From: Mustelus asterias
Lineage: Eukaryota
NCBI RefSeq assembly: GCF_964213995.1
Contig: NC_135804.1
Coordinates: 68,634,001 to 68,698,000, forward strand
Length of the DNA: 64,000 bases
Reading direction: 5' to 3'
In this document: one piece after another, positions 837 to 59,669 of the stretch
Layout of the letters: each line of letters opens with the position of its first letter
How positions within the stretch are numbered: position 1 is the first letter of the stretch
Position numbers and translations under genes: made by a program
The notes under the pieces: generated by a model
Databases searched by the model: none
Told to the model about the DNA's origin: nothing
The model's input: only the letters and a program-made list of their open reading frames with translations

Positions 837-1646
837 ATCATCGGCAAGATGATGCATGCCGTAACCAGATAAAACCAAAATTATATACCGGTGGGAAAGA
901 GAAATAATGAGGAATGTTGTTACGCACATCCAGCAGAATAATGAGATACATCTTGATGGTATTGGATGTAACATTTAACTGATTCGTGCTGAAGTTAAAC
1001 GTAAAACTGCACGAATACCCTAATTGTAAATGGACAATTTGCAGACATCAAGACATCAAGAGGCGTTCCACCCGAGGAATCAAACTTGTTTTCTCTTTCA
1101 GATGCCGATCATACTACAGTTTATTTCTCCTTAATTGAAATGTTTCCCATATGGTTAACACCATTTATTTGACCTTTGTTGATGACATACAGTGTAGTCG
1201 AGGGAGATAACAATTAAACTATACTGCAGAGAAAGGAGGTAGAATGGTCCTTCTTTCGAGTTCTCCAGATAACGATAAAGTGAAAATTTTGTTCCTTCTG
1301 TTAAGACACAGGCCAGAAAGTTCAAGGTGTTTTATAAAGTTAGCCAGTCCCTAAGTTTCACATTTGATTTTGGCATGCATGAGCATAAGCTGTTTCACTC
1401 CAGACATGATTCAAGACTAGGAAGCTTTTATCAAATGAAGTTCATTTCAGAACAAAGTTAAAATATATCAAAAAGATCAGCAGGCCCTAGGGGGCGGGGC
1501 CTGATGTGGCGGGGCCGAGAGGCGATCGGTGGGGGTTGGGGCTCCCGCTGCCACTCTGCACAGACATCCATGTGGGAAGTAGGGAGTACAGTAAGAAGTC
1601 TCACAACACCAGGTTAAAGTCCAACAGGTTTATTTGGTAGCAAATA

Positions 1647-1683
1647 TCATAAGCTTTCGGAGCACTGCTCCTTCGTCAGATGG
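1647..1683 (-). ncRNA. Minimal hammerhead ribozyme, mirror copy in the left arm
   Basis: Reverse complement reads CCAU-CUGACGA-AGGAGCAGUGCUCC-GAAA-GCUU-AUGA. Confidence 0.8.
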
Positions 1684-2081
1684 AGTGGAAATCTGCTCTC
1701 AAACAGTGCAAACAGACAGAATCAAGTTGCAGAATACTGATTAGAATGCGAATCCTACAGCCAGCCAGGTCTTAAATGTACAGACAATGTGGGTGGAGGG
1801 AACATTAAACACAGGTTAAAGATATGTGTATTGTCTCCAGACAGAACAGCTAGTGAAAGTCTGCAAGTCCAGGAGGCAAGCTGTGGGGGCTACTGATAAT
1901 GTGACATAAATCCAACATCCCGGTTTAGGCCATCCTCATGTGTGCGGAACTTGGCTATCAGTTTCTGCTCAGCGACTCTGCGCTGTCGTGTGTTGTGAAG
2001 TAGGTTGTAGGATTTGCATTCTAATCAGTATTCTGCAACTTGATTCTGTCTGTTTGCACTGTTTGAGAGCAGATTTCCACT

Positions 2082-2118
2082 CCATCTGACGAAGGAGCAG
2101 TGCTCCGAAAGCTTATGG
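2082..2118 (+). ncRNA. Minimal type I hammerhead ribozyme (PLE pLTR)
   Basis: CCAU-CUGACGA-A-GGAGC(AGU)GCUCC-GAAA-GC-UU-AUGG: full catalytic core, helix II, palindromic AGCU helix III, helix I CCAU/AUGG. Confidence 0.85.
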
Positions 2119-2224
2119 TATTTGCTACCAAATAAACCTGTTGGACTTTAACCTGGTGTTGTGAGACTTCTTACTGTGTTCACCCCAGTCCAACGCCGGC
2201 ACCTCCACATCAGGAAGTAGGGAG

Positions 2225-4470
2225 GCCAGGACTGGGGACTGTCGGTGGGATGGGGGGAGGGGGGGAGGAGTGGTGGCCTGCCATGGTGATGGTGGGGGGG
2301 CATAAATTTGAGGCCACTGCGCATGCACTGATCTCAATGCTGACAGATCGGCGCATGCGCAGTCGCGCAGCACGTTGATTTCAAGCTCCCCAGCGGAGAT
2401 CGGTCCGCCCCTGAAATTTAATAATACTCATGCTGGTGGCCTCTGCAGTGCACAGAGTGTGACCACCCTTGGAGGTCCCTTTGCCCATCTCCTCCAAGGA
2501 CTCATCTGAGCTGTCTGGACCAGGAGGGCAGGAACTCCAGTACGGGCCTGGAGTCCACAAGGCCCTGGGGCACCCAGATGGTACCCTGCAACACAGGACA
2601 CAAGGTTAAGTGCAGGGGAGGGAGAGGAATTCGGATGCCAAACACGTGATTCACATTTCTCCATTGAACATAGAACAAAGCACCAAGAAAATTATATCAG
2701 AAAAACAGGCCCTTTGGGCCCTCCAAGCCTGTGGCGACCAGGCTGCCCATCTGATTTGTGACCCCTACCCTTCTGGGGACCATATGCCTCTATTCCCATC
2801 CCATTCACATAGCTGTCAAGATGCCCCTTAAAGGTCACTATGCATCCGTAATTTTCTCCAGCAGCAAGACCCAGGCACCCACCACCTCCTCTGTGCAAAT
2901 AAACATGCCTCGCACATCTCCTTTAAGCCTTTCCCCTCGCACCTGAAACTCGTGCCCCCGAGACGTTGCCTCAAAGTGAGTGGAGGAATGACAGGTGCTC
3001 ACATCTTGATGGCAGACCAACCATGCTGTCACTGATAGCCCACATCCCCCCTTCTCTTGAGAGCTCCAGTGCTGCTCCTCAAAGGGGGTGACGACCCAGA
3101 GGTCTGGCTCACCATCCCCTGTCTCCGCCCTCTCACAGGTGTTATGGTCGCTCTCCTACTGTAGAGACAGAAAGAGCCATGGAAGAAATGGTGCCGTGAT
3201 TACTGCAGAGTATCAGGTGGTGGCCTTAGTGGGCAAGTGCAGTGGGGCTCTTGGAGCGGATACGAAGGAGCTGTTTGGGGATCAGGAGCTGAAAGCATGC
3301 AGGATGCTGGGGATAGCAGGATCTGGGGGGGGGGGGGGGGGCGGGAGGCGGTCGTACGCAGACTTTGTGCAGGAATGCCTGCCTGTTTCTCCATTCTTGA
3401 GTCATTGATGTGGCATCTCCACATCAATGACTGGGGACAGGGGAGAGAGAGGCAGGTGTCACACAGCCATCGGAGTCCAGAGGAGATGTGGGCCTTGTGT
3501 GGGAAGGTTCGGGGTGGGAGTGAGGGGGATCACTCTGCCTGATATCTGTACGGTGGAGGGTGGATCTCTCTGACTGAGATCAGTTGGGGGGGGGCGGGGG
3601 GGAAAGCGGGGGAGGGGAGTCGGCTGCCACTCTGCCTGAGATAAGTGGGGGAGAAGAGGGCCCGCTGCCACTCTGCCTGAGATCAGTGGGGGGAAGGGGA
3701 GTTCGCTGCCACTCTACCTGAGATTAGTGGAGGGGAAGGGGGAAGCGCCCATAATCAATCTGTGTGGTGGGGGGATAGGGGGACAATTGATTCCCCATCC
3801 TGGCCCAGCGTGATCTCTGGCACCACCTCCAGCAGTGACAATCCACCCCTGCAGGCAGACCCCCACCCGGCAGATGCCCCAGTCCGCCCTGATCGCTTGC
3901 CTCCCTCCAGCCCTTACCAGATCCCAATACAGAGTGGCAGCAGGGTCTCCCACCCCCATTGCTTGACCCTAGGCCCTGTCCCATTGGCATTGCCCCATGC
4001 CCAGTGCGGCCAGTGCAAAGGTGCCCCCTGGGCATGGGCATTTTGCCCCTTGGATAGTATCAGGGTGCACAGGCTGGCACTGCCAGGATGACCATGCCCA
4101 GAGGCTCCATTCCCCCCCCCCCCCCCCCCCACCCACTGAGAGCTATAGTAATCCCCACTGGAATGAATCACTCTGGTGGAGTGGGCGGTGCGAGCGGGCC
4201 CAGAAAATTCAGCCCCTGGGCCGGCTGATAGTATTTAAATAGTATACAAAATAATACTTAAATGCTAATCTCGCCTCCCAGCTGATTTCCAGGGCTGCGC
4301 AGTCGCCACCGGAAATCCGGGCCTGGGAGATGCAAGCGCGGCGCGAATTTTCGTGGGAATCCTGCAAATTGGCCGACACGCGATTCTCCCTGCCCACTGC
4401 GCTAAAGAATTAATACAGCAGGACTCGAGAATCACCCACTTCGAATTTTTTTTTGGAGAATTGCCCCCAT
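2225..4470. repeat. GC-rich degenerate interspersed repeat region (possibly non-autonomous DNA-transposon derived), includes a short CR1 3'-tail remnant ~2665-2950
   Basis: Abrupt GC-rich, G/C-tract-rich composition and GGAGAATTGCCCC-type end near 4455-4468; family not identifiable by eye. Confidence 0.3.
3530..3730 (+). repeat. Minisatellite-like ~40-bp repeat (GCCACTCTGCCTGAGATCAGTGGGGG)
   Basis: 4-5 imperfect copies separated by G-rich spacers. Confidence 0.6.
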
Positions 4471-5004: not shown

Positions 5005-5105
5005 GAGCTTTGGAAAAGGGTCATCTGGACTCGAAACGTCAGCTCTTTTCTCTCTATACAGATGCTGCCAGACCTGCTGAGATTTTCCAGCATTTTCTCT
5101 TTTAG
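5005..5105 (+). mobile_element. PLE family B pLTR fragment with degenerate hammerhead
   Basis: GAGCU-UUGGAAA-A-GGGUC(AUCUG)GACUC-GAAA-CG-UC-AGCUC at 5005-5045; downstream sequence matches the arms at 61780-62007. Confidence 0.7.
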
Positions 5106-5660: not shown

Positions 5661-5979
5661 ACACAGTAAGAAATCTCACAACACCAGGTTAAAGTCCAAC
5701 AGGTTTATTTGGTAGCGCAAGCCACTAGCTTTCGGAGCACTGCCCCTTCATCAGGTGAGTGAGAGTTCTGTTCACAAACAGGGCATATAAAGACACAAGC
5801 TCAATTTACAAAGCAATGGTTGGCCCTCTTTGTGAACAGAACTCCCACCCACCTGATGAAAGGGCAGCGCTCCGAAAGCTAGTGGCTTTTGTTACCAAAT
5901 AAACCTGTTGGACTTTAACCTGGCGCTATGAGACTTCGTACTGTGCTTACCCTAATCTAACGCCGGCATCTCCACATCA
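5661..5979. mobile_element. PLE family A inverted-pLTR insertion
   Basis: Inverted arms homologous to 1587-2212; 10-bp TSD TGACCATATT at 5651-5660 and 5980-5989. Confidence 0.85.
5849..5885 (+). ncRNA. Minimal hammerhead ribozyme
   Basis: CCAC-CUGAUGA-AAGGGCAGCGCUCC-GAAA-GC-UA-GUGG; a mirror copy lies on the minus strand at 5722-5757. Confidence 0.78.
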
Positions 5980-6918: not shown

Positions 6919-7106
6919 TTATTATGCTTTCACCCTTTCCAATTAGTGTGTATATGTCATAATCTTAAATTTTGAAATGTTCCAATCCTCCATTAATAAT
7001 TGCACAGCAAATTCGAGGTAAGGTGAAAGGGTGCAGAAGAGATTCACCAGGATATTGCCTGGGCTGGAGTGCTTTAGCTATGAAGAAAGGCTGGCTGGGC
7101 TGTGAT

Positions 7107-8390
7107 AAAAGCAAACTACTGTTGATGCTGGAATCAGACCTGCTGGAAAATCTTAGCAGTTCTGACAGCAATGTCGAGAGAGAATAGAGCCAACGTCTTG
7201 AGTATAAATGACCCTTCGTCAGACCCAAAGACTAAGAAAATACAACGAGATTCATATTGTGGGGGTGGGGCGGGGTTGGTGGTGGGTGGGGGATGTGATT
7301 GATAGGAATGGCAAAGGGAATGTAAATGCCGATGATGAGGGCTATGAATGAGGTTAACAGCGTCCATTAAGATATCGCAATGTGTTGACAGCAGAACAAA
7401 AGTACAGAGTGTAGAAATGTAGTTGATGGGCCGAGTCGGGTGCGGTGGGGAGGGGGGTAAAACAAAATGGAAAGCAAGATATTAGAAGTGCAAAAATAAA
7501 TATATAAAGCAATAAAAATGGATTTATAAAATGAGGAGAAATAAAATAAATGGAAATGGGGTGAAGCCATAGGAGAGATTCATGCTGTGAAGTCCAAAGA
7601 TGTGCGGGTTAGGTTGATTGGCCAGGTTAAAAATTGCCCCTTAGAGTCCTGAGATGCGTAGGTTAGAGGGATTAGCAGGTAAATATGTGGGGGTAGGGCC
7701 TGGGTGGGATTGTGGTCGGTGCACACTCGATGGGCCGAATGGACTCCTTCTGCACTGTAGGGTTTCTATGAAGTTGCTGAACTCAATGTTCAGTCCAGAA
7801 GGCTGTAAAGTACCCATTCGGAAGATGCAGTGCTGTTCCTCCCGTTTGCATTGGGCTTCACTGGAATATTGCAAAATGCCAATGATTAACATGCAGATAG
7901 GAGAGCAGGGTGATGTGTTCAAATGGCAGGTGACAGGAAGGTCTGGGTGCTGCTTGCAGATGGACTGAAGGTGTTCTGCAAAGCGGCCACCCAGTCTGTG
8001 TTTGCAATCTCCAATGTAAAACAGACTGCATTGGGAGTAGTGAATGCAAAAGACCAGATTAAAGGAGGTGCAGGGGAAGTGCTGCTTCACCTGAAAAGAA
8101 TACTTGCGCCTTAGAATGGGAAGAGGTGATGGGGCACCTGCTATAATTGCATAGGAAGGTGTTGTTTGCAATGGGTGTAGTATTGGGCATGATGGAGTAG
8201 TGGACAGCTCAGAAGGAGACAGGTTAGCGTGGGTGAAAGGGACAGAAAAACTGAGATGGCTAATGCCACGGAGACAATTATTGATGAAAAAATCAAGACG
8301 AGGTAAGAGGCTGAAGGGAGGGGTCCAGGTGAATGGAGAATGCTGGAGGCATGTGAAAGGATTTGCTGAATTGGTGAGGACTCCTGCCCA
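7107..8390 (-). mobile_element. PLE family B, 3' part with GIY-YIG endonuclease and terminal pLTR
   Basis: ORF 7641-8414 core FPCTSFNLVFCIHYSQCSLFYIGDCKHRLGGRFAEHL...EQHCIFRMGTLQPSGLNIEFSNF is a PLE-type GIY-YIG with Cys/His motif. pLTR at 7107-7225 has a decayed hammerhead (CUGACGA-AGGGUC...). Confidence 0.85.
7590..7770 (+). mobile_element. HE1-type SINE, 3' half, nested in the PLE
   Basis: Near-identical to the 3' half of the full copies at 38348-38687 and 61391-61691. Confidence 0.85.
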
Positions 8391-8400: not shown

Positions 8401-8572
8401 GTAAGAAGTCTCACAACACCAGGTTAAAGTCCAACAGGTTTATTCGGTAGCAAAAGCCACTAGCAATCGGAGCGCTGCCTATTCGTCAGGTGAGTGGGAG
8501 TTCTATTCACAAACAGGGCATATAAAGACACAAACTCAATTTACAAAATAATGGTTGGAATCTCGCATTCCA
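8401..8572 (-). mobile_element. PLE family A pLTR fragment, decayed hammerhead (GAAA->GAUU)
   Basis: GTAAGAAGTCTCACAACACCAGGTTAAAGTCCAACAGG start; matches the left arm of 5661-5979. Confidence 0.8.
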
Positions 8573-8577
8573 ATACT

Positions 8578-8878
8578 TTGCAGAAGGAGGCCATTTGGCC
8601 CATCGAGTCTGCACTGACCACAATCCCAATCAGGTCCTATCCCCATAACTCCCTCCATTTACCCTAGCTAGTCCCCCTGACGCTAAGGGGCAATTTGGCA
8701 TGGCCACCTAACCTGCACATCTTTGGACTGTGGGAGGGAAACGGAGCACCCAGAGAAAACGCACGCAGACATGGGAAGAATGTGCAAACTCCACACAGAC
8801 AGTGACCTAAGCCAGGAATCGAACCCAGGCCGATGGTGTGGTGAGGCAACAGTGCTAACCACTGTGCCTCTGTGCTGC
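8578..8878 (-). mobile_element. HE1-type SINE
   Basis: tRNA-like head with A/B boxes (TGGTTAGCAC / GGTTCGATTCC) and conserved TGTGTGGAGTTTGCACATTCT core on the minus strand. Confidence 0.88.
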
Positions 8879-8879
8879 C

Positions 8880-10025
8880 CAGGTGAGGTGAGAATGGCAG
8901 CCCTTGACATCAAGGCTGCATTCGACCAAGTGTGGCCTTAAGGAGCCCTAGGCAAACTGGAATCAATGAGAATCAGAGGGCAAACACTCCGCTGGTTGGA
9001 ATCATATCTGGTACATAGGGATATGTTTGTGGTTGTGGAAGGTCAGTCACCTCAGCTCCATGATATCTATGCAGGAGTCACTCAGGGACGAAGCCCAACA
9101 ATCTTCAGCTGCTTCAACAACATCGGTCATAATGTCAGATCTGGGGATGTTCATCGATGATTGCACAATGTTCAGCACCATTCACAACTCCTCAGATACT
9201 AAAGTAGTCCATGTTCAAATACAACAAGAGCTGGACAATATCCAAGCTTGGGCTAACAAGTGGTAGGTAATATTCACGCCACGCAAATGCCAGGCAATCA
9301 CCATCACCAACAAGAGACAGTCTAACCACTATCCTTTGACATTCAATTTTGGTACCATCACCGAATCCCGCACTGTCAACATCCTCGGGGTTAACTTTGA
9401 CCAGAAACTCAACTGGACTCTCCACATAAACACAGTAGCTATAAGAGCAGGTCAGAGGCTAGGAATACTGTAGCTAGTAACTCACCCCCTGACTCGCCAA
9501 AGCCGATCCACCATCTACAAGGCACAAGTCAGAGGTGTGATGGAATACTCCCCACTTGCCTGGATGGGTGCAGCTCCAACAACACTCAAGAAGCTTGACA
9601 CCATTCAGGACAAAGCAGCCCACTTGATTGGCACCACATCTACAAACATTCAATCCCTTCACCACTGATGCTCAGTCACAGCAGTCCGTACTATCTACAA
9701 GATGCATTGCAGCAATTCACCAAAGGTCCTTAAACAGCACCTTCCAAACCCACGACGTCTCCCATCTAGAAGGACAAGGGCAGCAGGAACATCTAAACAC
9801 CATCACCTGCAAGCTCCCCTCCAAGTCACTCACCGACCTGACTCGGAAAAATATCATCATTCCTTCGCAGTCGCTGTGTCAAAATCCTGGAATTCCCTCC
9901 CTAACGACATTGTGGGTCAACCCACAGCACGTGGACTGCAGTGATTCAAGAAGGCAGCTTACCACCACCTTCTCAAGGGCAACTAGGGATGGGCAATAAA
10001 TGCTGGCCAGCCAGCGACTCCCATG
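8880..10025 (+). mobile_element. Non-LTR retrotransposon (CR1/L2-group) RT fragment with 3' tail
   Basis: GEVRMAALDIKAAFDQVW, LRWLESYL, MFIDDCT, LDNIQAWANKW motifs; tail GGGCAATAAATGCTGGCC...(GAAT)n. Confidence 0.85.
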
Positions 10026-16220: not shown

Positions 16221-16344
16221 GATGTGGCAATGCCGGCGTTGGACTGAGGTAAATACAGTAAGGAGTCTAACAACACCAGGTTAAAGTCCAACCGGTTTAT
16301 TTGGTAGCAAACGCCACTAGCTTTCGGAGCGCTGCTCCTTACTG
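16221..16344 (-). mobile_element. PLE family A short insertion
   Basis: 12-bp TSD TGTAAATTAAAT at 16209-16220 and 16345-16356; truncated at the 5' edge of hammerhead helix II. Confidence 0.85.
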
Positions 16345-18395: not shown

Positions 18396-18576
18396 TGGTC
18401 ATGATGTGGAGATGCCGGCGTTGGACTGGGGTAAACACAGTAAGGAGTCTAAGAACACCAGGTTAAAGTCCAACAGGTTTATTTGGTAGCAAACGCCATC
18501 CAACAGTTTGCTACCAGTGGCGTTTGCTACCAAATAAACCAGTTGGACTTTAACCTGGTGTTGTTAGACTCCTTAC
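18396..18576. mobile_element. PLE family A palindromic mini-insertion
   Basis: Inverted arms; CCTTACAATGG duplicated at 18385-18395 and 18571-18581; inserted in an older SINE-like repeat (~18255-18625). Confidence 0.85.
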
Positions 18577-18625
18577 AATGGCCTTACAAGCCATTCAGTT
18601 CAAGGGGAAATTAGGGTTGGGCAAT

Positions 18626-18945
18626 AGAATCAAAGAATCCCATCAGTGCAGAAGGAGGCCATTTGGCCCATCCAGTCTGCACTAACAGCAATCCTACCCA
18701 GCCCCTATCCCCGTAACCCCACATATTTACCCTGCTAACCTACACATGGTGGGATGCCAAGGGGCAATTTAGTATGGCCAAGCAGCCTAACCTGCACATC
18801 TTGGACTGTGGAAGGAAACTGGAGCACTGGAGGACACCCACGCAGACACGGGGAGAATGTGCAATCTCCACACAGATAGTCACCGGAGGCCAGAATTGAA
18901 CCCGGTCTCTGACGCAATGAGGTAGCAGTGCTAACCGTGTCACCT
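18626..18945 (-). mobile_element. HE1-type SINE
   Basis: HE1 core and tail on the minus strand. Confidence 0.85.
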
Positions 18946-19235
18946 CTAAACAAATACAGGCCTGGACAGTGACACCCACATCCCAGAAATGAATATTTTA
19001 TATGTATTGCAGTGGAGAGGGAAATGTTTCATAAATGTGGATTGATGTCACCCATAAAACGCAGAGATTATGCCATTGAAAGAAATTTTCACCATCTATG
19101 AGGTTTCTGATATTACATCAGTCCACAATCTGAAAACACAGAATTTCAAGAGTTTGCAAAATCCCTTTGGATTTCTTTGCACAAACTCGCCAGGATTCCC
19201 ATGGGTTACTGGAGAAACAGAGAAATGTGTCATGG

Positions 19236-19400
19236 AATCATAGAATCCCTACAGTGCAGAAGGACGCCATTCGGCCCATCGAGTCTGCACCGACCAGAAT
19301 CCCACCGGGGCCTATTCCCGCAAGCCCTCATAATTACCGGCTAATCCTCCTGACACTATGGTTAATTTAGCATGGCCAATCAACCTAACTCGCACATCTT
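19236..19400 (-). mobile_element. HE1-type SINE 3' fragment
   Basis: ATAGAATCCCTACAGTGCAGAAGGA-GCCATTCGGCCCATCGAGTC tail. Confidence 0.8.
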
Positions 19401-21132: not shown

Positions 21133-21154
21133 TGGTGTTGGCGGAGTGACTGGC

Positions 21155-26884: not shown

Positions 26885-27135
26885 CACAGTAAGAAGTTTC
26901 ACAACACCAGGTTAAAGTCCAACAGGTTTATTTGGTAGCAAATGCCACTGCCTTCCAGAACAGGCTGTCCCTTCATCAGGTGGAGTGGAGAAATGCATTT
27001 CTCCACTCCACCTGACAAAGGGACAGCCTGTTCCGAAAGCTAGTGGCATTTGCTACCAAATAAACCTGTTGGACTTTAACCTGGTGTTGTTAATCTTCAT
27101 ACTGTGTTTACCCCAGTCCAACGCCGGCATCTCCA
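26885..27135. mobile_element. PLE family A near-perfect palindrome inserted in CR1
   Basis: 13-bp TSD CTTCTTGACAGAA at 26872-26884 and 27136-27148; centre AAATGCATTT at 26991-27000; hammerhead copies with helix II GGGACA/UGUUCC, each with a core mutation. Confidence 0.9.
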
Positions 27136-27610
27136 CTTCTTGACAGAAGCCAGAGGGTGGTTGTAGAGAGTTGTTTTTCAAACTGGAGGCCTGCGACCAG
27201 TGGTGTGCCTCAGGGATCAGTGCTGGGCCCACTGTTACTTGTCATTTATATTAATGATTTGGATGAGAATATAGGGGGCATGGTTAATAAGTTTGCAGGT
27301 GACACCAAGATTGGTGGCATGGTGGACAGTGAGGAAGGTTATTGCCAATTGCAGTGGGATCTTGATCAATTGGGCCAATGGGCTGACGAATGGCAGATGG
27401 AGTTTAATTTAGACAAATGCGAGGTAATGCATTTTGGTAGATTGAACCAGGGTAGGACTTACTCAGTTAATTTTACGGCGTTGGGGAGAGTTACAGAACA
27501 AAGAGATCTAGGGGTACATGTTCATAGCTCCTTGAAAGTGGAGTCACAGGTGGACAGAATGGTGAAGAAGGCATTCGACATGCTTGGTTTCATTGGTCAG
27601 AACATTGAAT

Positions 27611-27694
27611 TGTGAATTGTGTCCCAGAACATTGTGTGGCTTTTGCTACCAAATAAACCTGTTGGACTTTAACCTGGTGTTGTTAAACTTCTTA
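27611..27694 (+). mobile_element. PLE family A mini-insertion in CR1
   Basis: 13-bp TSD CAGAACATTGAAT at 27598-27610 and 27695-27707. Confidence 0.85.
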
Positions 27695-28142
27695 CAGAAC
27701 ATTGAATACAGGAGTTGGGACGTCTTGTTAAAGTTGTACAAGACAATGGTAAGGCCATACTTGGAATACTGTGTGCAATTCTGGTCACCCTATTATAGAA
27801 AGGATATTATTAAACTAGAAAGAGTGCCGTGAAGATTTACTAGAATGCGACCGGAACTTGATGGATTGAGTTATAAGGAGAGGCTGAATAGACTGGGACT
27901 TTTTCTTTGGAGCGTAGGAGGCTGAGGGATGACGTAATCGAGGTCTATAAAATAATGAGGGCATAGACAAGGTAGATAGTCAATATCTTTTCCGAAAGGT
28001 AGGGGAGTCTATAACTAGAGGGCATAGGCTTAAGGTGAGAGGGGAGAGATACAAAAGTGTCCAGAGGGACAATTGTTTCACACAGAGGGTGATGAGTGTC
28101 TGGAACAAGCTGCCAGAGGTAGTAGTAGAGGCGGGTACAATT

Positions 28143-33710: not shown

Positions 33711-33744
33711 AATCAGTATTGTTCAAATTACAAATAGTAATTAC

Positions 33745-47737: not shown

Positions 47738-50700
47738 ATTTGGCGAGGTTGCCCTCTTTTTAGGTCAAACCAAATAAACAAACTCAAATTAAGTCAGAAC
47801 AAAGTAAAAGGGTCAGCTCCCCAAAAAGGAGGGGGAACAGCCCGAACAGAAATCAAAGTACAAAGGAAACTTAAAAACATCAAATTAAAATGTGATTATT
47901 AGTGTCGATAACGCACCCCAACATCTGCGGTGCCCGGCGGGCACGGGAGGCATCAACCGCACCCGTGGACACCACATGCTCCTTCTCCAGGGACACCTGG
48001 TCGCGGACGTAGCCGCGGTAGAGGGGAAGACAGACAGGATGGACGGCCCCCTCGATCGCCCGCTGCCTGGACCGGTAAATGGCGCGTTTCGCCAGGCCCA
48101 GGAGCAGGTTCACGAGTAGGTCGCCATCCCAACCCTCCCCTCTCTGCACCGGGTGTCCATAGATCAGGAGCGTGGGACTGAAGTGCAGACAAAACATCAA
48201 TAAAAGGTTCTTCAGGAAAACATAAAGGGAGTGCAGCCTAAGCCATAAAACAGAGGCATGGTCCACGGACTCCACAAGGCCGCAGAAAGGGCAGTCTTCG
48301 GAGCCCGTGAACCAGTGAATTCTACGGTTGTGCGGAACTGCTGCATGCATCAACCTCCAACCCAGGTCCCCGACGTAATTGGGGGAGATCCCTTCGTAGA
48401 GGGACCTCCAGCGGGGATTTGGCGAGGTTGCCCTCTTTATAGGTCAAACCGAATAAACAAACTCAGGTTAAGTCAGGACAAAGTAAAAGGGGCAGCTCCC
48501 CAAAAAGGAGGGGGAACAGCCTGAAGAGAAATCAAAGTACAAAGGAAACTTAAAAACATCAAATTAAAATGTGATTATTAGGGTCAATAATGCACCCAAA
48601 CCCCTGCGGTGCCCAGCGGGCGCGGAAAGCATCAACCGCGCCCGTGGACACCGCATGCTCCCTCTCCAGGGACACCTGGCCGTGAACGTAGCCGCGGTAG
48701 AGGGGCAGACAGTCAGGATGGATGGCCCACTCGATCGCCCGCTGCCTGGACCGGTAAATGGCGCATTTCGCCAGTCCCAGGAGCAGGTTCATGAAGAGGT
48801 CGCCATCCCGACACTCCCCTCTCTGCACCGGGTGTCTGTAGATCAGGAGCGTGGGACTGAAGTGCAAACAAAACATCAATAAAAGGTTCTTCAGGAAAAC
48901 ATAAAGGGAGTGCAGCCTAAGACACACAACATAGACATGGTCCACGGACTCCACAAGGCCGCAGAAAGGGCAGTCTTCGGAGCCCGTGAACCAGTGAATC
49001 CTACTGTTGTGCGGAACTGCTGCATGCATCACCCTCCACCCCAGGTCCCCGACGTAATTGGGAGAGATCCCTTCGGAGAGGGACATCCAGCGGGGATTTG
49101 GTGAGGTTGCCCTCTTTTTAGGTCAAACCAAATAAACAACCTCAGGTTAGGTCAGGACAAAGTAAAAGGGTCAGCTCCCCAAAAAGGAGGGGGAACAGCC
49201 CGAACAGAAATCAAAGTACAAAGGAAACTTAAAAACATCAAATTAAAATGTGATTATTAGGGTCAATAATGCACCACAACCCCTGCGGTGCCCAGCGGGT
49301 GCGGAAACGTAAACCGCGTCCGTGGACACCGCATGCTCCCTCTCCAGGGACACCTGGCCGCGAACGTAGCCGCGGGAGAGGGGCAAGCAGTCAGGATGGA
49401 CGGCCCCCTCGATCGCCCGCAGCCTGGACCGGTAAATGGCGCGTGTCGCCAGGCCGAGGAGCAGGCTCACGAGGAGGTCGCCATCCCGCCCTCCCCTCTC
49501 CGCATCGGGTGTCTGTATATCAGGAACGTGGGACTGAAATGCAGACAAATCATCAATAAAAGGTTCTTCAGGAAAACATAAAGGGAGTGCAGCCGAAGAC
49601 ACACAACATAGACATGGTCCATGGAGTCTACAAGGCCACAGAAAGGGCAGTCTTCGGAGCCCGTGAACCAGTGAATCCACGGTTGTGCGGAATGGCTGCA
49701 TACATCACCCTCCACCCCAGGTCCCCGACGTAATTGTGGGAGATCCCCCCATAGAGGGACCTCCAGCGGGGATTTGGCGAGGTTGCCCTCTTTTTAGGTC
49801 AAACCAAATAAACAAACTCAGATTAAATCAGGACAAAGTAAAAGGGGCAGTCCTCAAAAAGGAGGGGGAACAGCCCAAACAGAAATCAAAGTACAATGGA
49901 AACTTAAAAACATCAAATTAAAATGTGATTATTCGGGTCAATAATACACCCCAACCACTGCGGTGCCCAGCGGGCGTGGAAGGCGTCAACCCTGCCCGTG
50001 TACACGGCATGCTCCCTCTCCAGGGACACCTGGCCGCGAACGTAGCCGTGGTAGAGGGGCAGGCAGTCAGGATGGACGGCCCCCTCGATCGCCCGCTGCC
50101 TGGACTGGAAAATGGCGCATTTCGCCAGGCCCAGGAGCAGGTTCACGAGGAGGTCGCCATCCCGAAACTGCCCTCTCCGCAACGGGTGTCAGTAGATCAG
50201 GAGCGTGGGACTGAAGTGCAGACAAAACATCAATCAAAGGTTCTTCAGGAAAATATGAACGGAGTGCAGCCTAAGCCATAAAACATAGACATGGTCCACG
50301 GACTCCACATGGCCGCAGAAAGGGCAGTCTTCGGAGCCCGTGAACCAGTGAATCCTACGGTTGTGCGGAACTGCTGCATGCATCACCCTCCACCCCAGGT
50401 CCCCGACGTAATTGGGGGAGATCCCTCCGTAGAGAGACCTCCAGCGGGGATTTGGCAAGGTTGCCCTCTTTTTAGGTCAAACCAAATAAACAAACTCAAA
50501 TTAAATCAGGACAAAGTAAAAGGGGCAGCTCCCAAAAAAGGAGGGGGAACAGCCCGAACAGAAATCAAAGTACAAAGGAAACTTAAAAACAGCAAATTAA
50601 AATGTGATTATTAGGGTCAATAATGCACCCCAACCCCTGCGGTGCCCAGCGGGCGCAGAAGGCGTCAACCGCACCCGTGGACACCGCATGCTCCCTCTCC

Positions 50701-53700
50701 AGGGACACCTGGCCGTGAACGTAGCCACGGGAGAGGGTCAGGCAGTCAGGATGGACGGCCTCCTCGATCGCCCGCTGCCTGGACCGGTAAATGGCGCGTT
50801 TCGCCAGGCCCAGGAGCAGGTTCACGAGGAGGTCGCCATCCCGACCCTCCCCTCTCCTCACCGGGTGTCCGTAGATCAGGAGCGTGGGACTGAAGTGCAG
50901 ACAAAACATCAATAAAATGTTCTTTAGGAAAACATAAAGGGAGTGCAGCCTAAGACACACAACATAGACATGGTCCACGGACTCCACAAGGCTGCAGAAA
51001 GGGCAGACTTCGGAGCCCGTGAACCAGTGGATTCTACGGTTGTGCGGAACTGCTGCATGCATCAACCTCCACCCCAGGACCCCAACGTAATTGGGGGAGA
51101 TCCCTTCGTAGAGGGACCGCCAGTGGGGATTTGGCGAGGTTGCCCTCTTTATAGGTCAAACCAAATAAACAAACTCAGGTTAAGTCAGGACAAAGTAAAA
51201 GGGGCAGCTCCCCAAAAAGGAGGGGGAACAGCCCGAACAGAAATCAAAGTACAAAGGAAACTTAAAAACATCAAATTAAAATGTGATTATTAGGGTCAAT
51301 AATGCACCCAAACCCCTGCGGTGCCCAGCGGGCGCGGAAAGCATCAACCGCGCACGTGGACACCGCATGCTCCCTCTCCAGGGACACCTGGCCGCGAACG
51401 TAGCCGCGGTAGAGGGGCAAGCAGTCAGGATGGATGGCCCGCTCGATCGCCCGCTGCCTGGACCGGTAAATGGCACGTTTCGCCAGTCCCAGGAGCAGGT
51501 TCACGAGGAGGTCGCCATCCCGCCCTCCCCTCTCCGCATCGGGTGTCCGTATATCAGGAACGTGGGACTGAAATGCAGACAAATCATCAATAAAAGGTTC
51601 TTCAGGAAAACATAAAGGGAGTGCAGCCTAAGACACACAACATAGACATGGTACATGGAGTCTACAAGGCCACAGAAAGGGCAGTCTTCGGAGCCCGTGA
51701 ACCAGTGAATCCTACGGTTGTGCAGAACGGCTGCATACATCACCCTCCACCCCAGGTCCCCGACGTAATTGTGGGAGATCCCCCCATAGAGGGACCTCCA
51801 GCGGGGATTTGGTGAGGTTGCCCTCTTTTTAGGTCAAACCAAATAAACAAACTCAGATTAAATCAGGACAAAGTAAAAGGGGCAGCTCCTCAAAAAGGAG
51901 GGGGAACAGCCCAAACAGAAATCAAAGTACAAAGGAAACTTAAAAACATCAAGTTAAAATGTGATTATTCGGGTCAATAATGCACCCCAACCAGTGCGGT
52001 GCCCAGCGGGCGCGGAAGGCGTCAACCCTGCCCGTGTACACGGCATGCTCCATCTCCAGGGACACCTGGCCGCGAACGTAGCCGTGGTAGAGGGGCAGGC
52101 AGTAAGGATGGACGGCCCCCTCGATCGCCCGCTGCCTGGACCGGTAAATGGCGCATTTCGCCAGGCCCAGGAGCAGGTTCACGAGGAGGTCGCCATCCCG
52201 AAACTCCCCTCTCCGCAGCGGGTGTCCGTAGATCAGGAGCGTGGGACTGAAGTGCAGACAAAACATCAATAAAAGGTTATTCAGGAAAATATGAAGGGAG
52301 TGCAGCCTAAGCCATAAAACATAGACATGGTCCACGGACTCCACATGGCCGCACAAAGGGCAGTCTTCGGAGCCCGTGAACCAGTGAATCCTACGGTTGT
52401 GCGGAACTGCTGCATGCATCACCCTCCACCCCAGGTCCCCGACGTAATTGGGGGAGATCCCTCCGTAGAGAGACCTCCAGCGGGGATTTGGCAAGGTTGC
52501 CCTCTTTTTAGGTCAAACCAAATAAACAAACTCAAATTAAATCAGGACAAAGTAAAAGGGGCAGCTCCCAAAAAAGGAGGGGGAACAGCCCGAACAGAAA
52601 TCAAAGTACAAAGGAAACTTAAAAACATCAAATTAAAATGTGATTATTAGGGTCAATAATGCACCCCAACCCCTGCGGTGCCCAGCGGGTGCGGAAGGCA
52701 TCATCCGCGCCCGTGGACACCGCATGCTCCCTCTCCAGGGACACCTGGCTTCGAACGTAGCCGCGGTAGAGGGGCAGACAGGCAGGATGGACGGCCCCCT
52801 CGATCGCCCGCTGCCTGGACCAGTAAATGGCACGTTTTGCCAGTCCCAGGAGCAGGTTCACGAGGAGGTCGTCATCCTGTCCCTCCCCTCTCCGCACCGG
52901 GTGTCCGTAGATCAGGAGCGTGGGACTGAAGTGCAGACAAAACATCAATAAAAGGTTCTTCAGGAAAACATAAAGGGAGTGCAGCCTAAGACACACAACA
53001 TAGACATGGTCCACGGACTCCACAAGGCCACAGAAAGGGCAGTCTTCGGAGCCCGTGAACCAGTGAATCCTACGGTTGTGCGGAACTGCTGCATGCATCA
53101 CCCTCCACACTATGTCCCCGACGTAATTGGGGGCGATCCCTCCATAGAGGAACCTCCAGCGGAGATTTGGCGAGGTTGCCCTCTTTTTAGGTCAAACCAA
53201 ATAAACAAACTCAGATTAAATCAGGACAAAGTAAAAGGGGCAGCTCCCAAAAAGGGAGGGGGAACAGACCGAACAGAAATCAAAGTACAAAGGAAACTTA
53301 AAAACAGCAAATTAAAATGTGATTATTAGGGTCAATAATGCACCCCAACCCCTGCGGTGCCCAGCGGGCGCGGAAGGCGTCAACCGCACCTGTGGACGCC
53401 GCATGCTCCCTCTCCAGGGACACCTGGCCGCGAACGTAGCCGCGGGAGAGGGGCAGACAGTCAAGATGGCCGGCCCCCTCGATCGCCCGCTGCCGGGACC
53501 GGTAAATGGCGCATTTTGCCAGGCCCAGGAGCAGGTTCACGAGGAGGTCGTCATCCCGTCCCTCCCCTCTCCGCACCGGGTGTCCGTAGATCAGGAGCGT
53601 GGGACTGAAGTGCAGACAAAAGATCAATAAAAGGTTCTTCAGGAAAACATAAAGTGAGTGCAGACTAAGGCACACAGCATAGACATGGTCCACGGACTCC

Positions 53701-56700
53701 ACAAAGCCGCAGAAAGGGCAGTCTTCGGAGCCCGTGAACCAGTGAATTCTACGGTTGTGCGGAACTGCTGCATGCATCACCCTCCACCCCAGGTCCCCGA
53801 CGTAATTGGGGGATATCCCTTTCTAGAGGGACCTCCAGCGGGGATTTGGCGAGGTTGCCCTTTTTTAAGGTCAAACCAAATAAACAAACTCAGGTTAAGT
53901 CAGGACAAAGTGAAAGGGGCAGCTCCCCAAAAAGGAGGGGGAACAGCCAGAACAGAGATCAAAGTACAAAGGAAACTTAAAAACATTAAATTCAAATGTG
54001 ATTATTCGGGTCAATAAGGCACCACAAACCCCTACGGTGCCCAGCGGGCGCGGAAAGCGTCAACCGCGCCCGTGGACACCGCATGCTCCCTCTCCAGGGA
54101 CCCCTGGCCGTGAATGTAGCCGCGGGAGAGGGGCAGGCAGTCAGGATGGACGGCCCGCTCGATCGCCCGCTGCCTGGACCGGTAAATGGCGCATTTCGCC
54201 AGGCCCAGGAGCAGGTTCACGACGAGGTCGCCATCCCGACCCTCCCCTCTCCGCACCGGGTGTCCGGAGATCAGGAGCGTGGGACTGAAGTGCAGACAAA
54301 AGATCAATAAAAGGTTCTTCAGGAAAACTTAAAGGGAGTGCAGCCTAAGACACACAACATAGACATGGTCCACGGACTCCACAAAGCCGCAGAAAGGGCA
54401 GTCTTCGGAGCCCGTGAACCAGTGAATCCTACGGTTCTGCGGAACTGCTGCATGCATCAACCTCCACCCCAGGTCCCCGACGTAATTGGGGGAGATCCCT
54501 CCGTAGAGAGACCTCCAGCGGGGATTTGGCGAGGTTGCCCTCTTTTTAGGTCAAACCAAATAAACAAACTCAAATTAAATCAGGCCAAAGTAAAAGGGGC
54601 AGCTCCCCAAAAAGGAGGGGGAACAGCCCGAACAGAAATCAAAGTACAAAGGAAACTTAAAAACATCAAATTAAAATGTGATTATTAGGGCCAATAATGC
54701 ACCCCAACCCCTGCGGTGCCCAGCGGGCACGGAAGGCATCAACCCCGCCCGTGGACACGGCATGCTCCCTCTCCAGGGACACCTGGCCGCGAACGTAGCC
54801 GCGGTAGAGGGGCAGACAGTCAGGATGGCCGGCCCGCTCAACCGCCCACTGCTTGGACCGGTAAATGGCGCGTTTCGCCAGACCCAGGGGCAGGTTCACA
54901 AGGAGGTCGCCATCCCGACCCTCCCCTGTCCGCACCGGGTGTCCATAGATCAGGAGCGTGGGACTGAAATGCAGACAAAACATCAATAAAAGTTTCTTCA
55001 GGAAAACATAAAGGGAGTGCAGCCTAAGACACACAACATAGACATGTTCCACGGACTCGAGAAGGCCACAGACAGGGAAGTCTTCGGAGCCCGTGAACCA
55101 GTGAATCCTATGGTTGCGCGGAACTGCTGCATACATCACCCTCCACCCCAGGTCCCCGATGTAGAGGGACCTCCAGCGGGGATTTGGCGATGTTGCCCTC
55201 TTTTTAGGTCAAACCAAATAAACAAACTCAGATTAAGTCAGGACAAAGTAAAAGGGGCAGCTCCCCAAAAAGGAGGGGTAACAGCTCGAACAGAAATCAA
55301 AGTGCAAAGGAAACTTAAAAACATCAAATTAAAATGTGATTATTAGGGTCAATAATGCACCCCAACCCGTGCGGTGCCAAGCGGGCGCGCAAGGCGTCAA
55401 CCGCGCCCGTGGACACCGCATGCTCCCTCTCCAGGGACACCTGGCCGACAACGTAGCCGCGGTAGAGGGGAAGACAGTCAGGATGGATGGCCCGCTCGAC
55501 CGCCCGCTGCCTGGACCGGTAAATGGCGCGTTTTGCCATGCCCAGGAGCAGGTTCACGAGGAGGTCGCCATCCCGACCCACCCCTCTCCGCACCGGGTGT
55601 CCGGAGATCAGGAGCGTGGGACATGAAGTGCAGACAAAACATCAATAAAAGGTTCTTCAGGAAAACATAAAGGGAGTGCAGCCTAAGACACACAAAATAG
55701 ACATGGTCCACGGACTCCACAAGGCCGCAGAAAGGGCAGTCTTCAGAGCCCGTGAACCAGTGAATCCTACGGTTGTGCGGAATTGCTGCATACATCACCC
55801 TGCACCCCAGGCCCCCGACGTAATAGGGGGAGATGCCCCCGTAGATGGACCTCCAGCGGGGACTTGGCGAGGTTGCCCTCTTTTTAGGTCAAACCAAATA
55901 AACAAACTCAGATTAGATCAGGACAAAGTAAAAGGGGCAGCTCCCCAAAAAGGAGGGGGGACAGCCCGAACAGAAATCAAAGTACAAAGGAAACTTAGAA
56001 ATATCAAATTAAAATGTGATTATTAGGGTCAATAATGCACCCCAACCCCTGCGGTGCCCAGCGGGCGCGGAAGGCATCAACCACGCCCGTGGACACCGCA
56101 TGCTCCCTCTCCAGGGACATCTGGCCGTGACCGTAGCCGCGGTTGAGGGGAAGACAGTCAGGATGGACGGCCCCCTCGATCGCCCGCTGCCTGGACCGGT
56201 AAATGGCGCATCTCGGCAGGCCCAGGAGCAGGTTCACGAGGAGGTCGCCATCCCGACCCTCCCCTCTCCGCACCGGGTGTCCGTAGATCAGGAGCGTGGG
56301 ACTGAAGTGCAGACAAAACATCAATAAAAGGTTCTTCAGGAAAACATAAAGGGAGTGCAGCCTACGACACACAACATAGACATGGTCCACGGACTCCACA
56401 AGTCCGCAGAAAGGGCAGTCTTCGGAGCCCGTGAACCAGTGAATCCTACGGTTGTGCGGAACTGCTGCATGCATCACCCTCCACCCCAGGTCCCCGACGT
56501 AATTGGGGGAGATCCCTCCGTAGAGGGACATCCAGCGGGGTTTTGGCGAGGTTGCCCTCTTTTTAGGTCAAACCAAATAAACAAACTCAGATTAAATCAG
56601 GATAAAGTAAAAGGGTCAGCTCCCCAAAAAGGAGGGGGAACAGCCCGAACAGAAATCAAAGTACAAAGGAAACTTAAAAACATCAAATTAAAATGTGATT

Positions 56701-58591
56701 ATTAGGGTCAATAATGCTCCCCTACCCCTGCGGTGCCCAGCGGGCGCGGAAGGCGTCAACCACGCCCGTGGACACCGCATGCTCCCTCTCCAGGGACATC
56801 TGGCCGCGACCGTAGCCGCGGTTGAGGGGAAGACAGTCAGGATGGACGGCCCCCTCGATCGCCCGCTGCCTGGACCGGTAAATGGCGCATCTCGGCAGGC
56901 CCAGGAGCAGGTTCACGAGGAGGTCGCCATCCCGACCCTCCCCTCTCCGCACCGGGTGTCCGTAGATCAGGAGCGTGGGACTGAAGTGCAGACAAAACAT
57001 CAATAAAAGGTTCTTTAGGAAAACATAAAGGGAGTGCAGCCTACGACACACAACATAGACATGGTCCACGGACTCCACAAGTCCGCAGAAAGGACAGTCT
57101 TCGGAGCCCGTGAACCTGTGAATCCTACGGTTGTGCGGAACTGCTGCATGCATCACCCTCCACCGCAGGTCCCCGACGTAATTGGGGGAGATCCCTCCGT
57201 AGAGGGCCATCCAGCGGGGTTTTGGCGAGGTTGCCCTCTTTTCAGGTCAAACCAAATAAACAAACTCAGATAAAATCAGGATAAAGTAAAAGGGTCAGCT
57301 CCCCAAAAAGGAGGGGGGACAGCCCGAACAGAAATCAAAGTGCAAAGGAAACTTAAAAACATCAAATTAAAATGTGATTATTAGGGTCAATAATGCACCC
57401 CTACCCCTGCGGTGCCCAGCGGGCGCAGAAGGCATCAACCGCGCCCGTGGACACCGCATGCTTCCTCTCCAGGGACACCTGGCCGCGAACGTAGCCGCGG
57501 TAGAGGGTCAGACAGTCAGGATGGATGGCCCCCTCGATCGCCCGCTGCCTGGACCGGTAAATGGCGCGTTTCGCCAGGCCCAGGAGCAGGTTCACGAGGA
57601 GGTCGCCATCCCGACCCTTCCCTCTCCGCACGGGTGTCCGTAGATCAGGAGCGTGGGACTGAAGTGCAGACAAAACATCAATAAAAGGTTCTTCAGGAAA
57701 ACATAAAGGGAGTGCAGCCTAAGACACACAACATAGACATGGTCCACGGACTCCACAAGGCCGCAGAAAGGGCTGTCTTCGGAGCCCGTGAACCAGTGAA
57801 TCCTACGGTTGTGCGGAACTGCTGCATGCATCACCCTCCACCCCAGCTCCCCGACGTAATTTGGGGAGATCTCTCCGTAGAGGGACCTCCAGCGGGGATT
57901 TGGCAAAGTTGCCCTCTTTTTAGGTCAAACCAAATAAACAAACTCAGATAAAATCAGGACAAAGTAAAAGGGGCAGCTCCCCAAAAAGGAGGGGGAATAG
58001 CCCGAACAGAAATCAAAGTACAAAGGAAACTTAAAAACATCAAATTAAAATGTGATTATTAGGGTCAATAATGCGCCCCAACCCCTGCGGTGCCCAGCGG
58101 GCGCGGAAGGCGTCAACCGCGCCCGTGGACACCGCATGCTCCCTCTCCAGGGACACCTGGCCGCGAACGTAGCCGCGGTAGAGGGGAAGAAAGTCAGGAT
58201 GAACGGCCCCCTCGATCTCCCGCTGCCTGGACCGGTATATGGCGCATTTCGCCAGGCCCAGGAGCAGGTTCACGAGGAGGTCGCCATCCCGACCCTCCCC
58301 TCTCCGCACCGGGTGTCCGGAGATCAGGAGCGTGGGACTGAAGTGCAGACAAAACATCAATAAAAGGTTCTTCAGGAAAACATAAAGGGAGTGCAGCCTC
58401 AGCCACACAACATAAACATGTTCCACGGACTCCACAAGGCCCCAGAAAGGGCAGTCTTCGGAGCCCGTGAACCATTGAATCCTCCGGTTGTGCGGAACTG
58501 CTGCATGCATCACCCTCCACCCCAGGTCCCCGACGTAATTGGGGGAGATCCCTCCGTCGAGGGACCTCCAGCGGGGATTTGGCGAGGTTGC
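47738..58591 (-). repeat. Tandem array: 16 x ~679-bp units, each the 3' end of a Tx1/L1-clade retrotransposon (zinc-knuckle ORF2 C-terminus + 3' UTR) plus a 15-bp spacer
   Basis: Frame ends (..NNHILI*) recur at 47880, 48559, ~49238, 49913, ~50592, 51271, 51949, 52628, ~53307, ~53986, 54666, 55324, 56004, ~56683, ~57362 and 58040. Protein PRWRSLY..DLGWRVMHAAVP..CPFCG..ESVDH...C.RL matches the Tx1-type zf-RVT region. Confidence 0.93.
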
Positions 58592-59240
58592 AACAAGGTC
58601 AACAGCTGAGTCGTTCTGACTGAATCCAAACTGAGTGTCAATGAGCAGGTTATTGCGAAGCAAGTGCGACTTGATAACACTGTTGATGTCCCCTTTCATC
58701 ACTTTGTTGATGATCAAGAACAGGCTAATGGGCTGGTAATTGGCTGGGTTAGATTTGTCCTTTTTTTCTGTACAGGACATATTTGGGTAATTTTCCATGC
58801 TATCGGGTGAATGTCAGTGTTGTGTCTTTACAGGAACAGCTTGGCTCGGGGCGCGGCAAGTTCTGGAGAACAAGTCCTCGGTACTATTGACGGAATATTG
58901 TCAGGGTCCAAAGCTTTTGCAGTATCCAGTGCCTTCGGTCGTTTCTTGATTTCAGATTAACTGGATAACACACAGCACTTCTGACTGAAGATTCGTGCAA
59001 ATACCTCAGCCTTAACACAGCGCTGATGTGCTGAGCTCCTCCATTATTGAGGATCGTGAAATTTGTGGAGCTTCCACCTCCAGTGAGTTGTTTAATTGGC
59101 CACCAACTTTCATGGCTGGATGTGGCAGGACTGCAGAGTTTAGATCGGACCAGTGGGTTGTGGAATTGCTCAGCTCTATTATTCCTTACGCTATTTGCCA
59201 CGCAGCTCGACTTGCGTTGTAGTTTCACCAAGTTGGAACC
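58592..59240 (-). mobile_element. Decayed CR1/L2-group LINE, apparent host of the array
   Basis: KKDKSNPANYQPISL...LIDTQFGFSQNDSAVDL; same type as the LINE at 8880-10025. Confidence 0.8.
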
Positions 59241-59506
59241 CCACTGCGGAGCTGCCTGTTTTTTGTGTGGCGGAAGTACCTTCAAGAGCGCAGATGTGTT
59301 AGGTTTAGTTGGACAAATAAACAGCAATCAGATTCCGGATAGATTGGAAACAGTGGGTGGAACTTCCGCCCTAAGATCACCCTGAACCAAACCTGGAAAT
59401 CCATTGACCGGTTGTTTCACCACCCCAGACCTTTCATAAAGCCTTTAGAAATTTTCACCAGCAATATTTTACAGCCCAGATACTAATAGTTGGGAGAGGG
59501 AATGTG

Positions 59507-59669
59507 GTAAGAAGTTTAACAACACCAGGTTAAAGTCCAACAGGTTTATTTGGTAGCAAAAGTGTGGCTTTTGCTACCAAATAAACCTGTTGGACTTTAA
59601 CCTGGTGTTGTTAAACTTCTTACTGTGTTTACCCCAGTCCAACGCCGGCATCTCCACATCATGACTACC
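59507..59669. mobile_element. PLE family A palindromic mini-insertion
   Basis: 12-bp TSD AGAGGGAATGTG at 59495-59506 and 59670-59681; ~55-bp perfect inverted arms. Confidence 0.9.

Follow-up and report, generated by a model that had tools for sequence, protein, structure and literature searches.

Eight insertions of one repeat family were analyzed in a 64,000-nucleotide stretch of the Mustelus asterias genome (contig NC_135804.1, positions 68,634,001 to 68,698,000; hereafter the window), together with copies elsewhere in that genome. Judged by sequence, each insertion is a copy, truncated at its 5' end, of an autonomous Penelope-like element (PLE) of the Neptune type, a retrotransposon with a minimal type I hammerhead ribozyme motif. 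A typical insertion has two head-to-head inverted arms, one of which bears a short tail. The arms were probably twin-primed, likely reaching the 5' end of the RNA, and in a small share of copies this was likely the hammerhead-cut end. About 1,800 copies start at the predicted cut and are likely a fossil trace of ribozyme cutting in living cells. We lean slightly toward a broader reading, in which the genome would be a fossil map of two kinds of Penelope 5' end, one capped and located 37 nt above the cut, the other uncapped and left by the ribozyme. Germline cleavage would then take off the cap at a point 99 nt ahead of the start codon, and every inverted insertion would be the work of a dimer that primes on both strands of the target, using two fixed sites of a single RNA. 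The class, the motif, the inverted layout and the tail are already published (PMC4209133, PMC3846280, PMC8557442 and PMC11167929); the fresh point is that copies start exactly at the predicted cut.

The minimal hammerheads of animal Penelope elements show weak activity in vitro (PMC4209133), and anole RNA yielded no cut ends (PMC11167929). The origin of the inverted ends and the one-sided tail of this class was described as unexplained (PMC8557442). A young family with more than 200,000 insertions offers enough junctions for cutting and end formation to be read from DNA alone. If the reading is true, the junctions would provide direct genomic evidence for germline cleavage by minimal Penelope hammerheads. 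By cutting immediately below the cap, the ribozyme could also act as a simple switch that controls translation of the element itself.

The parent element was recovered as natural genome copies. Its 892-aa open reading frame (ORF), with reverse transcriptase (RT), a CX4CX2C linker and GIY-YIG motifs, was located in a 3,021-bp unit, and the units occurred in tandem or were flanked by an inverted pseudo-long terminal repeat (pLTR). Pfam returned an RVT_1 match in the ORF (E=1e-9), the VVY..YIG and CCHH motifs were identified by eye, and a PDB sequence search with the ORF gave 0 matches. The order pLTR-ORF-pLTR was seen at loci L153-L157, with units spaced 2,991-3,021 bp. When the same genome was searched at the protein level, the endonuclease end had 81,846 loose candidates and an N-terminal piece had 3,748, many of them in 912-codon open frames with 98-99% identity. 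The tail ended at the ORF start codon, and the hammerhead cut was predicted 99 nt upstream of this codon. By the definition of PMC8557442 (a CX2-5CxxC linker before the endonuclease, common to both clades), the sequence places the element in the Neptune/Nematis type. All 13 arms in the window aligned to the 3' end of the unit, and positions 59562-59660 of insertion 8 corresponded exactly to the 99-nt segment between the predicted cut and the start codon (59661), identical at 99/99 positions to a natural full-length unit. Hence, the insertions were interpreted as truncation products. The first-pass annotation had described a family of palindromic mini-elements, which was abandoned because the 3-kb autonomous element is truncated differently in each insertion and the last 36 codons of the ORF survive in the 1587 copy. 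Its assignment to a Penelope-like origin with a minimal type I hammerhead and inverted pLTRs was borne out.

Arm pairing was surveyed in a 1.27-Mb sample of 127 stretches, each 10 kb long and placed at a round-number position regardless of the element. A tailed arm was joined to a tail-less arm in 38 of the 41 pairs, two pairs had two tails and one was unscorable, so 38 of the 40 scorable pairs were mixed. The target was explored in a young set of 91 tailed arms, the first listed of 19,161 exact matches, all on contig C1. Target duplications were found for 69 of these arms and measured 12-14 bp in 52. CTG/TGG occurred within 6 nt of the duplication on the left in 47/57 cases and on the right in 43/57, against a background of 15.5%. 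The target was two-fold symmetric and CTGG...CCAG-like, with the 12-14 bp duplication inside. The tail-less arm of the young set ended mostly at -31 to -39. Moreover, source variants were common to both arms. Helix II and its loop were the same in both arms of 28 of the 36 young pairs (24% expected), three pairs differed by CpG decay alone, and a 60-bp insertion at the ORF end was present in both arms wherever both spanned the insertion point. The parent element, the tail/no-tail pairing, the symmetric target with its duplications, these shared variants and the two start pile-ups described below form the observed basis of the twin-priming reading.

The 60-bp insertion, which is in frame and includes a 17-bp duplication, marks a young source lineage whose protein is extended by 20 aa at its very end (L263:3129-3188). 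The same lineage was seen at L216, L222, L223, L233, L257, L262, L267, L275, L281, L290, L292, L297 and L298. It was represented in 10 of the 91 young tailed arms, and the helix II variant was alike wherever it was seen. Tandem full-length units were present at L153 (69470000-69479999, about 0.8 Mb from the window), L154 and L155; the period near the window was 2,991 bp with broken frames, and elsewhere it was 3,021 bp. The same-strand hammerheads 3 kb apart in tandem units could form a dimer. Contigs of other organisms covered 29-30 of 30 element bins (four contig sets, against L157:1400-5500), which indicates that the family is not limited to this genome. Such contigs bear on neither RNA ends nor expression, and they were given no weight either way in judging the cleavage reading.

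Arm start positions were tallied from each search's first 100 rows as listed, which came from contigs C1-C3. The cut-site window yielded 1,427 junctions, whereas its control yielded 18. Relative to the predicted cut, the listed rows were distributed as 23 at 0, 15 at +1, 13 at +2, 8 at +3, 8 at +4 and 2 at -1 on one side of the peak and at its edge, followed by 6 at -2 (mostly with a T-run filler), 1 at -3, 0 at -4, 1 at -5, 8 at -6, 3 at -7 and 1 at -8; a further 5 lay beyond, 4 belonged to the other branch and 2 were duplicates. Four of the joints at -6 were at the helix III palindrome. Starts at 0 to +2 thus numbered 51, versus 9 at -3 to -1 (p=2e-5). In the ATGG branch, where the site is 2 nt nearer the anchor, 595 junctions were obtained against 4 in the control; the listed rows included 43 at 0 to -2 (an edge blurred by chance matches), 2 at -3 to -5, 14 at +1 and 10 chance rows. 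The window at the 5' edge of the hammerhead gave 1,599 junctions (control 216), and 49 of the listed rows were at -35 to -38, with the peak at -37. An upstream control window gave 738 junctions (control 31), half of them at natural palindromes. Genome-wide searches for exact starts counted 1,791 arms beginning at the cut and 948 beginning at -37, or roughly 3,200 and 1,700 after correction for the filter, which equals one to two percent of all insertions.

The -37 site had the form CCC-A-CT and was located 29 nt below TATAAG, a TATA that was absent in the ATGG branch. The A at -37 is initiator-like, going by the initiator (Inr) consensus. The base before the arm was G in 69 of the 100 listed rows at -37 and in 40 of 100 at the cut site. 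Once joints derived from the partner were set aside at -37, G preceded the arm in 31 of the remaining 49, where about 30% was expected (p about 1e-5 to 1e-6). An extra G marks the ends of capped full-length L1 copies (PMC11702581). Both pile-ups look like RNA 5' ends, and the cap-like extra G at -37 supports this interpretation. Where arms met at the cut site, short fillers made of A or T runs looked templated from the neighbouring hairpin loop, as if the polymerase had slipped back at the RNA end. Other apparent peaks were set aside. The clustering of BLAST alignment starts at reference position 2434, which is 16 nt below the cut, resulted from divergence among subfamilies and was dismissed as an artefact of the alignment, and the recurrent breakpoints at -264 and -221 were source-lineage differences rather than truncations, the former being traced to the 60-bp insertion.

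The proposed mechanism is as follows. A dimeric element protein would nick both strands of the symmetric target, 12-14 nt apart. One nick would prime at the start codon and give the tailed arm; the other would prime about 36 nt upstream and give the tail-less arm. The two complementary DNAs (cDNAs), usually copied from one RNA, would run to the RNA 5' end, where their 3' ends would anneal or be end-joined head-to-head. Because priming is internal, the stub should measure 136 nt if the template is an uncut transcript from the pLTR promoter, which starts 37 nt above the cut, and 99 nt if the ribozyme has cut the transcript; most templates would be uncut. For the PAc protein of the anole, two RT start sites bounding the tail, extension of both strands and a predicted dimer were reported (PMC11167929). 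The pairing, target and junction data appear to fit this anole biochemistry, with two cDNAs ending at the RNA end, better than they fit fold-back of a single cDNA.

Several observations weigh against this reading. The junction tallies were made by hand, and the two arms of one junction are not independent. The cut-site window was no richer than the 5'-edge window, with its 1,599 junctions. Search rows whose upstream letters did not come from a near partner looked flat, with about 15 at -5 to -1 versus 11 at 0 to +4; the site-0 peak of that partner-screened search was discounted because the filter favours site 0. The 91 unfiltered young loci gave a modest excess of about 12 arms at 0 to +6 versus 5 at -7 to -1, with one tailed arm exactly at 0. 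In the ATGG branch, AT microhomology was present in 10 of the 15 unambiguous site-0 rows, and -1 was ambiguous. The arms of 5 of the 36 young pairs differed in the loop beyond CpG decay, and the GIY-YIG domain of the ORF was not called by Pfam. In the anole, RNA reads that end at the cut were not found, and cleavage was unneeded in vitro (Frangieh et al., PMC11167929). Furthermore, among 20 junctions that had an arm at 0, the partner ran through the cut in three, which is impossible from one cut RNA. The last observation would agree with a cut-site pile-up that reflects stalling of the reverse transcriptase at a folded catalytic core or at dimer helix III instead of a cut RNA end. Stalling would also suit the equally large second pile-up elsewhere in the motif, the poor cleavage of minimal PLE hammerheads in vitro (PMC4209133) and the inactivity of 8/9 Xenopus dimers (10.64898/2026.07.22.740005). 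It was nevertheless considered unlikely, because the edge fell on the first base after H17 (23 versus 2) and not on the 3' foot of helix I or on H17, the edge shifted along with the motif between branches, and the other pile-up had cap-like features.

The inverted arm could instead have come from fold-back self-priming of one cDNA or, as PMC3846280 proposes, of an antisense template, followed by an asymmetric central deletion. The source variants shared by the arms agree with such an origin, and so do the near-symmetric junctions, whose breakpoints were at most 12 nt apart in 27 of 49 clean cases. The centres of long palindromes are known to be lost, which was counted in favour of fold-back. 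This origin is nonetheless hard to reconcile with the length difference, since the tail-less arm was longer in 14/49 junctions and the tailed arm in 8/49, with near-symmetric offsets of both signs and 7 of zero. Loop-less joints at natural 6-bp palindromes, which were hot spots (17 of the 50 rows listed), fit two annealing ends better, and the same motif was present on both target flanks; fold-back was therefore rated quite improbable. It was regarded as very improbable that the copies form a family of non-autonomous mini-elements or retrozymes spreading in palindromic form and giving the host many working ribozymes. Nearly half of the young tailed arms (43/91) started no more than 140 nt from the start codon, which would suit such a family, as would the 110,902 intact cores reported below. 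Against it, breakpoints ran continuously from about 55 nt up to beyond 3 kb, junctions differed among copies, no tandem arrays of short units occurred in the window (periods up to 500), and in inverted copies a duplex was predicted to trap the motif. Twin priming, with arms extending to an RNA end, remained the preferred reading.

The hammerhead motif was evaluated in an alignment of 38 sequences of the two older branches, taken from 61 selected for an intact core, with the young branch and gapped variants excluded. The hammerhead structure paired 91% of cells, versus 24-50% in slid controls. The proximal helix I pair 22-52 was U-A in 22 sequences and C-G in 16 (CCAU/AUGG versus YCAC/GUGG), so the helix I covariation claimed in the first-pass annotation (CCAU/AUGG versus CCAC/GUGG) is real. 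A distal helix I extension, which had gone unnoticed there, contained a second such pair (24 U-A, 9 A-U). The covariation score was reached by 0/500 shuffles; the two well-populated two-sided pairs come from related sequences, in which each change may be one event. The covariation can be put down to two or three events at subfamily level, not to many independent ones. Helix II had one-sided changes only in this alignment, from which the GGGACA/UGUUCC variant and the young branch were absent. That variant had been proposed as helix II covariation on the basis of the copy at about 27020. It was found with an intact core at sample locus L054, whereas the cores at about 27020 were broken in both arms (G8 to A in one, altered GAAA/UH in the other). 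Helix III was the palindrome AGCU in 38/38 sequences, themselves chosen for an intact core, as had been stated; such a helix would allow a dimer.

In the 1.27-Mb sample, 55 of 119 arms had the core and 45 had the helices. Position 17 (H17) was U, A or C and never G in the 55 intact cores, and two G cases occurred among other loci. An Rfam scan gave no hammerhead match, only microRNA-like hairpins below threshold. The z-scores of single-motif folding were weak (-1.2, +0.5, +0.2 and -1.8), and the lowest-energy fold of the young-branch motif was not a hammerhead. Helix II and loop II were hypervariable in the young branch (L213-L302), which is otherwise about 99% identical, with at least six recurring variants that all had 5-6 pairs. 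For the 1587 copy, the motif was predicted to be buried in a duplex of about 175 bp in a transcript of either strand, because a head-to-head pair always has the antisense arm first. A sense ribozyme had earlier been expected in transcripts from either strand; on this prediction, transcripts of inverted copies likely carry a trapped rather than an active ribozyme. Dead genomic copies would mostly not be working ribozymes.

The sample contained 119 arms, namely 41 pairs and 37 unpaired arms (some of which may have partners too short for detection), or about 78 insertions. The density was one per 16 kb, and the one per 8 kb given previously applied to the window only, which was about twofold richer than the sample (p about 0.05). 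Extrapolation from the sample gave about 226,000 insertions genome-wide. The intact-core pattern had 110,902 matches in the genome (about 30 per Mb), whereas the reversed pattern had 0; hence, the motif is not a chance occurrence. A very large shark ribozyme repertoire had been suggested. The motif count agrees with it, but a large repertoire of working ribozymes is unsupported because of the predicted duplex trapping in inverted copies. The axolotl has 126,247 motifs (PMC7229834) in 28.21 Gb (10.64898/2026.07.22.740005), or about 4.5 per Mb. The density here was about seven times that value, a rough comparison because the search descriptors differ, and it was the highest among the published counts compared, again under differing search rules.

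The element resembles the endonuclease-containing (EN+) PLEs of the Neptune/Nematis type (PMC8557442, PMC3846280) in its single RT plus C-terminal GIY-YIG ORF, CX4CX2C linker, partial tandems, inverted 5'-truncated copy or pLTR, one-sided tail of 30-40 bp, target duplication and TATA/Inr-like pLTR promoter. It differs from them in its far higher copy number, taken from the extrapolated total, and in the strict tail/no-tail pairing and the symmetric CTGG...CCAG target with its 12-14 bp duplication, which were not found in the accessible descriptions of those two papers. With the minimal hammerheads of metazoan PLEs (Cervera and De la Pena 2014, PMC4209133), it shares a 4-bp helix I, an extra base after A9, G10.1-C11.1, a palindromic 15.2-16.2 without loop 3, high variability and the predominance of single motifs, some of them on opposite strands 100-700 bp apart. 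Unlike in that account, the distal helix I extension with one covarying pair and the genomic cut-site pile-up were seen here, and the 110,902 matches compare with about 9,000 in Xenopus tropicalis and about 4,000 in the coelacanth, under different descriptors.

The Poseidon element PAc of Anolis (Frangieh et al. 2024, PMC11167929) is alike in having two internal RT starts that bound the tail, both strands nicked and extended, a predicted dimer and uncut RNA as the main template. The PAc cut lies within the ORF, 26 nt in, RT starts at +111-118, the targets are AT-rich and no in vivo cut was seen, whereas here the cut is predicted 99 nt upstream of the start codon, RT would start near +1 and -36, and targets have the form CTGG...CCAG. 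Non-LTR retrozymes (PMC7229834; 10.64898/2026.07.22.740005) share the type I hammerhead, the PLE relationship and very high motif counts; they are short head-to-tail repeats that give circular RNAs, in contrast to the head-to-head truncation products with variable breakpoints described here. Short head-to-tail repeats of the retrozyme kind with at least two hammerheads were absent from the window, and the same-strand cores at tandem loci were about 3 kb apart. Literature searches, whose scope did not extend to most subscription journals, Repbase and supplements, returned no report of cut-site genomic truncations, the pairing rule, the target motif or the family; the supplementary alignments of the 2014 paper and the tables of the 2026 preprint for its one chondrichthyan could contain the motif.

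Within the window, self-comparison confirmed that the eight insertion sites given in the first-pass annotation belong to one family. The seven duplications of 10-13 bp named there were also recovered as exact ones, of 12, 10, 12, 11, 13, 13 and 12 bp (at 1587, 5661, 16221, 18396, 26885, 27611 and 59507); a duplication was looked for at 8401 and none was found. Inverted arms with one longer by about 35 nt had been described for most copies, and head-to-head arms with a tail of about 36 nt were indeed observed in 5/8 insertions (1587, 5661, 18396, 26885 and 59507). The second arm at 16221 was only about 10 nt, and 8401 and 27611 were single tail-less arms. The full CUGANGA-A-helixII-GAAA-GC-UH core, previously attributed to the longer copies in general, was complete in 4 of the 13 arms (1683-, 2082+, 5758- and 5849+), and both arms near 27020 fell outside this group. 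Three of the eight insertions (18396, 27611 and 59507) begin at the predicted cut. At 18396, both arms start at this site or within one base of it; the arm at 27611 starts there with a 2-nt microhomology and is identical at 64/64 positions to a young full-length unit. The 36-codon ORF piece of insertion 1 had no Pfam match. Insertion 6 lies within a CR1-like long interspersed nuclear element (LINE). The coordinates are given in Table 1.

Table 1. Insertions of the Penelope-like element in the window, with their target duplications and hammerhead motifs.
Feature	Position	Strand	Description
Insertion 1	1587..2212		tail-less arm 1588-2000 (-) and tailed arm 2003-2212 (+), head-to-head; arms identical 172/175
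Insertion 1, target duplication	1575-1586 and 2213-2224		12 bp
Insertion 1, last 36 codons of the ORF (GIY-YIG endonuclease end)	1893..2000	-	translation equals the C-terminus of the 892-aa ORF
Insertion 1, hammerhead, minimal type I	2082..2118	+	core intact; predicted cut 2114/2115; distal helix I extension 2068-2074 with 2120-2126
Insertion 1, second hammerhead	1647..1683	-	core intact; single G-to-A change in helix I
Insertion 2	5661..5979		tail-less arm (-) and tailed arm (+); intact cores 5722-5758 (-) and 5849-5885 (+)
Insertion 2, target duplication	at 5651 and 5980		10 bp
Insertion 3	8401..8561	-	lone tail-less arm; decayed core; adjoins SINE-like repeat
Insertion 4	16221..16344	-	tailed arm truncated within the hammerhead, with inverted second arm of about 10 nt; 12-bp duplication at 16209 and 16345
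Insertion 5	18396..18576		tailed arm (-) and tail-less arm (+), filler between; 11-bp duplication at 18385 and 18571
Insertion 6	26885..27140		inverted pair; helix II GGGACA/UGUUCC; both cores broken; 13-bp duplication at 26872 and 27136
Insertion 7	27611..27695	+	filler from target (27611-27631), then lone tail-less arm; 13-bp duplication at 27598 and 27695
Insertion 8	59507..59669		tail-less arm (-) and tailed arm (+); 12-bp duplication at 59495 and 59670

The window also contained other repeats, and its open frames of at least 150 aa were mostly retroelement-like (host genes were sought through this list only). About 16 head-to-tail copies of a LINE 3' end were located at 47738-58591 on the - strand, with a period of 679 bp and 92-93% likeness; each copy had a frame of about 187 codons with a C-x2-C...H...C knuckle, and related pieces were present at 23600-24258. 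We take this LINE to be L1/Tx1-like. Further LINE fragments, which we assume to be CR1-like, were found at 1-835, 19833-20722, 25222-29501, 33706-36732 and 42546-44319, one of them split by insertions 6 and 7. Ten pieces of a short interspersed nuclear element (SINE)-like family of about 310 bp occurred at 7591-7771, 8556-8880, 18624-18944, 19230-19407, 21154-21335, 21689-22025, 38353-38698, 39063-39153, 45626-45925 and 61380-61692. A separate palindromic repeat of about 186 bp, resembling a miniature inverted-repeat transposable element, was present at 61817-62002, with partial copies at 5008-5103 and 7106-7221. A G-rich minisatellite of 41 bp was repeated 3.3 times at 3608-3742, and a similar stretch flanked insertion 1.

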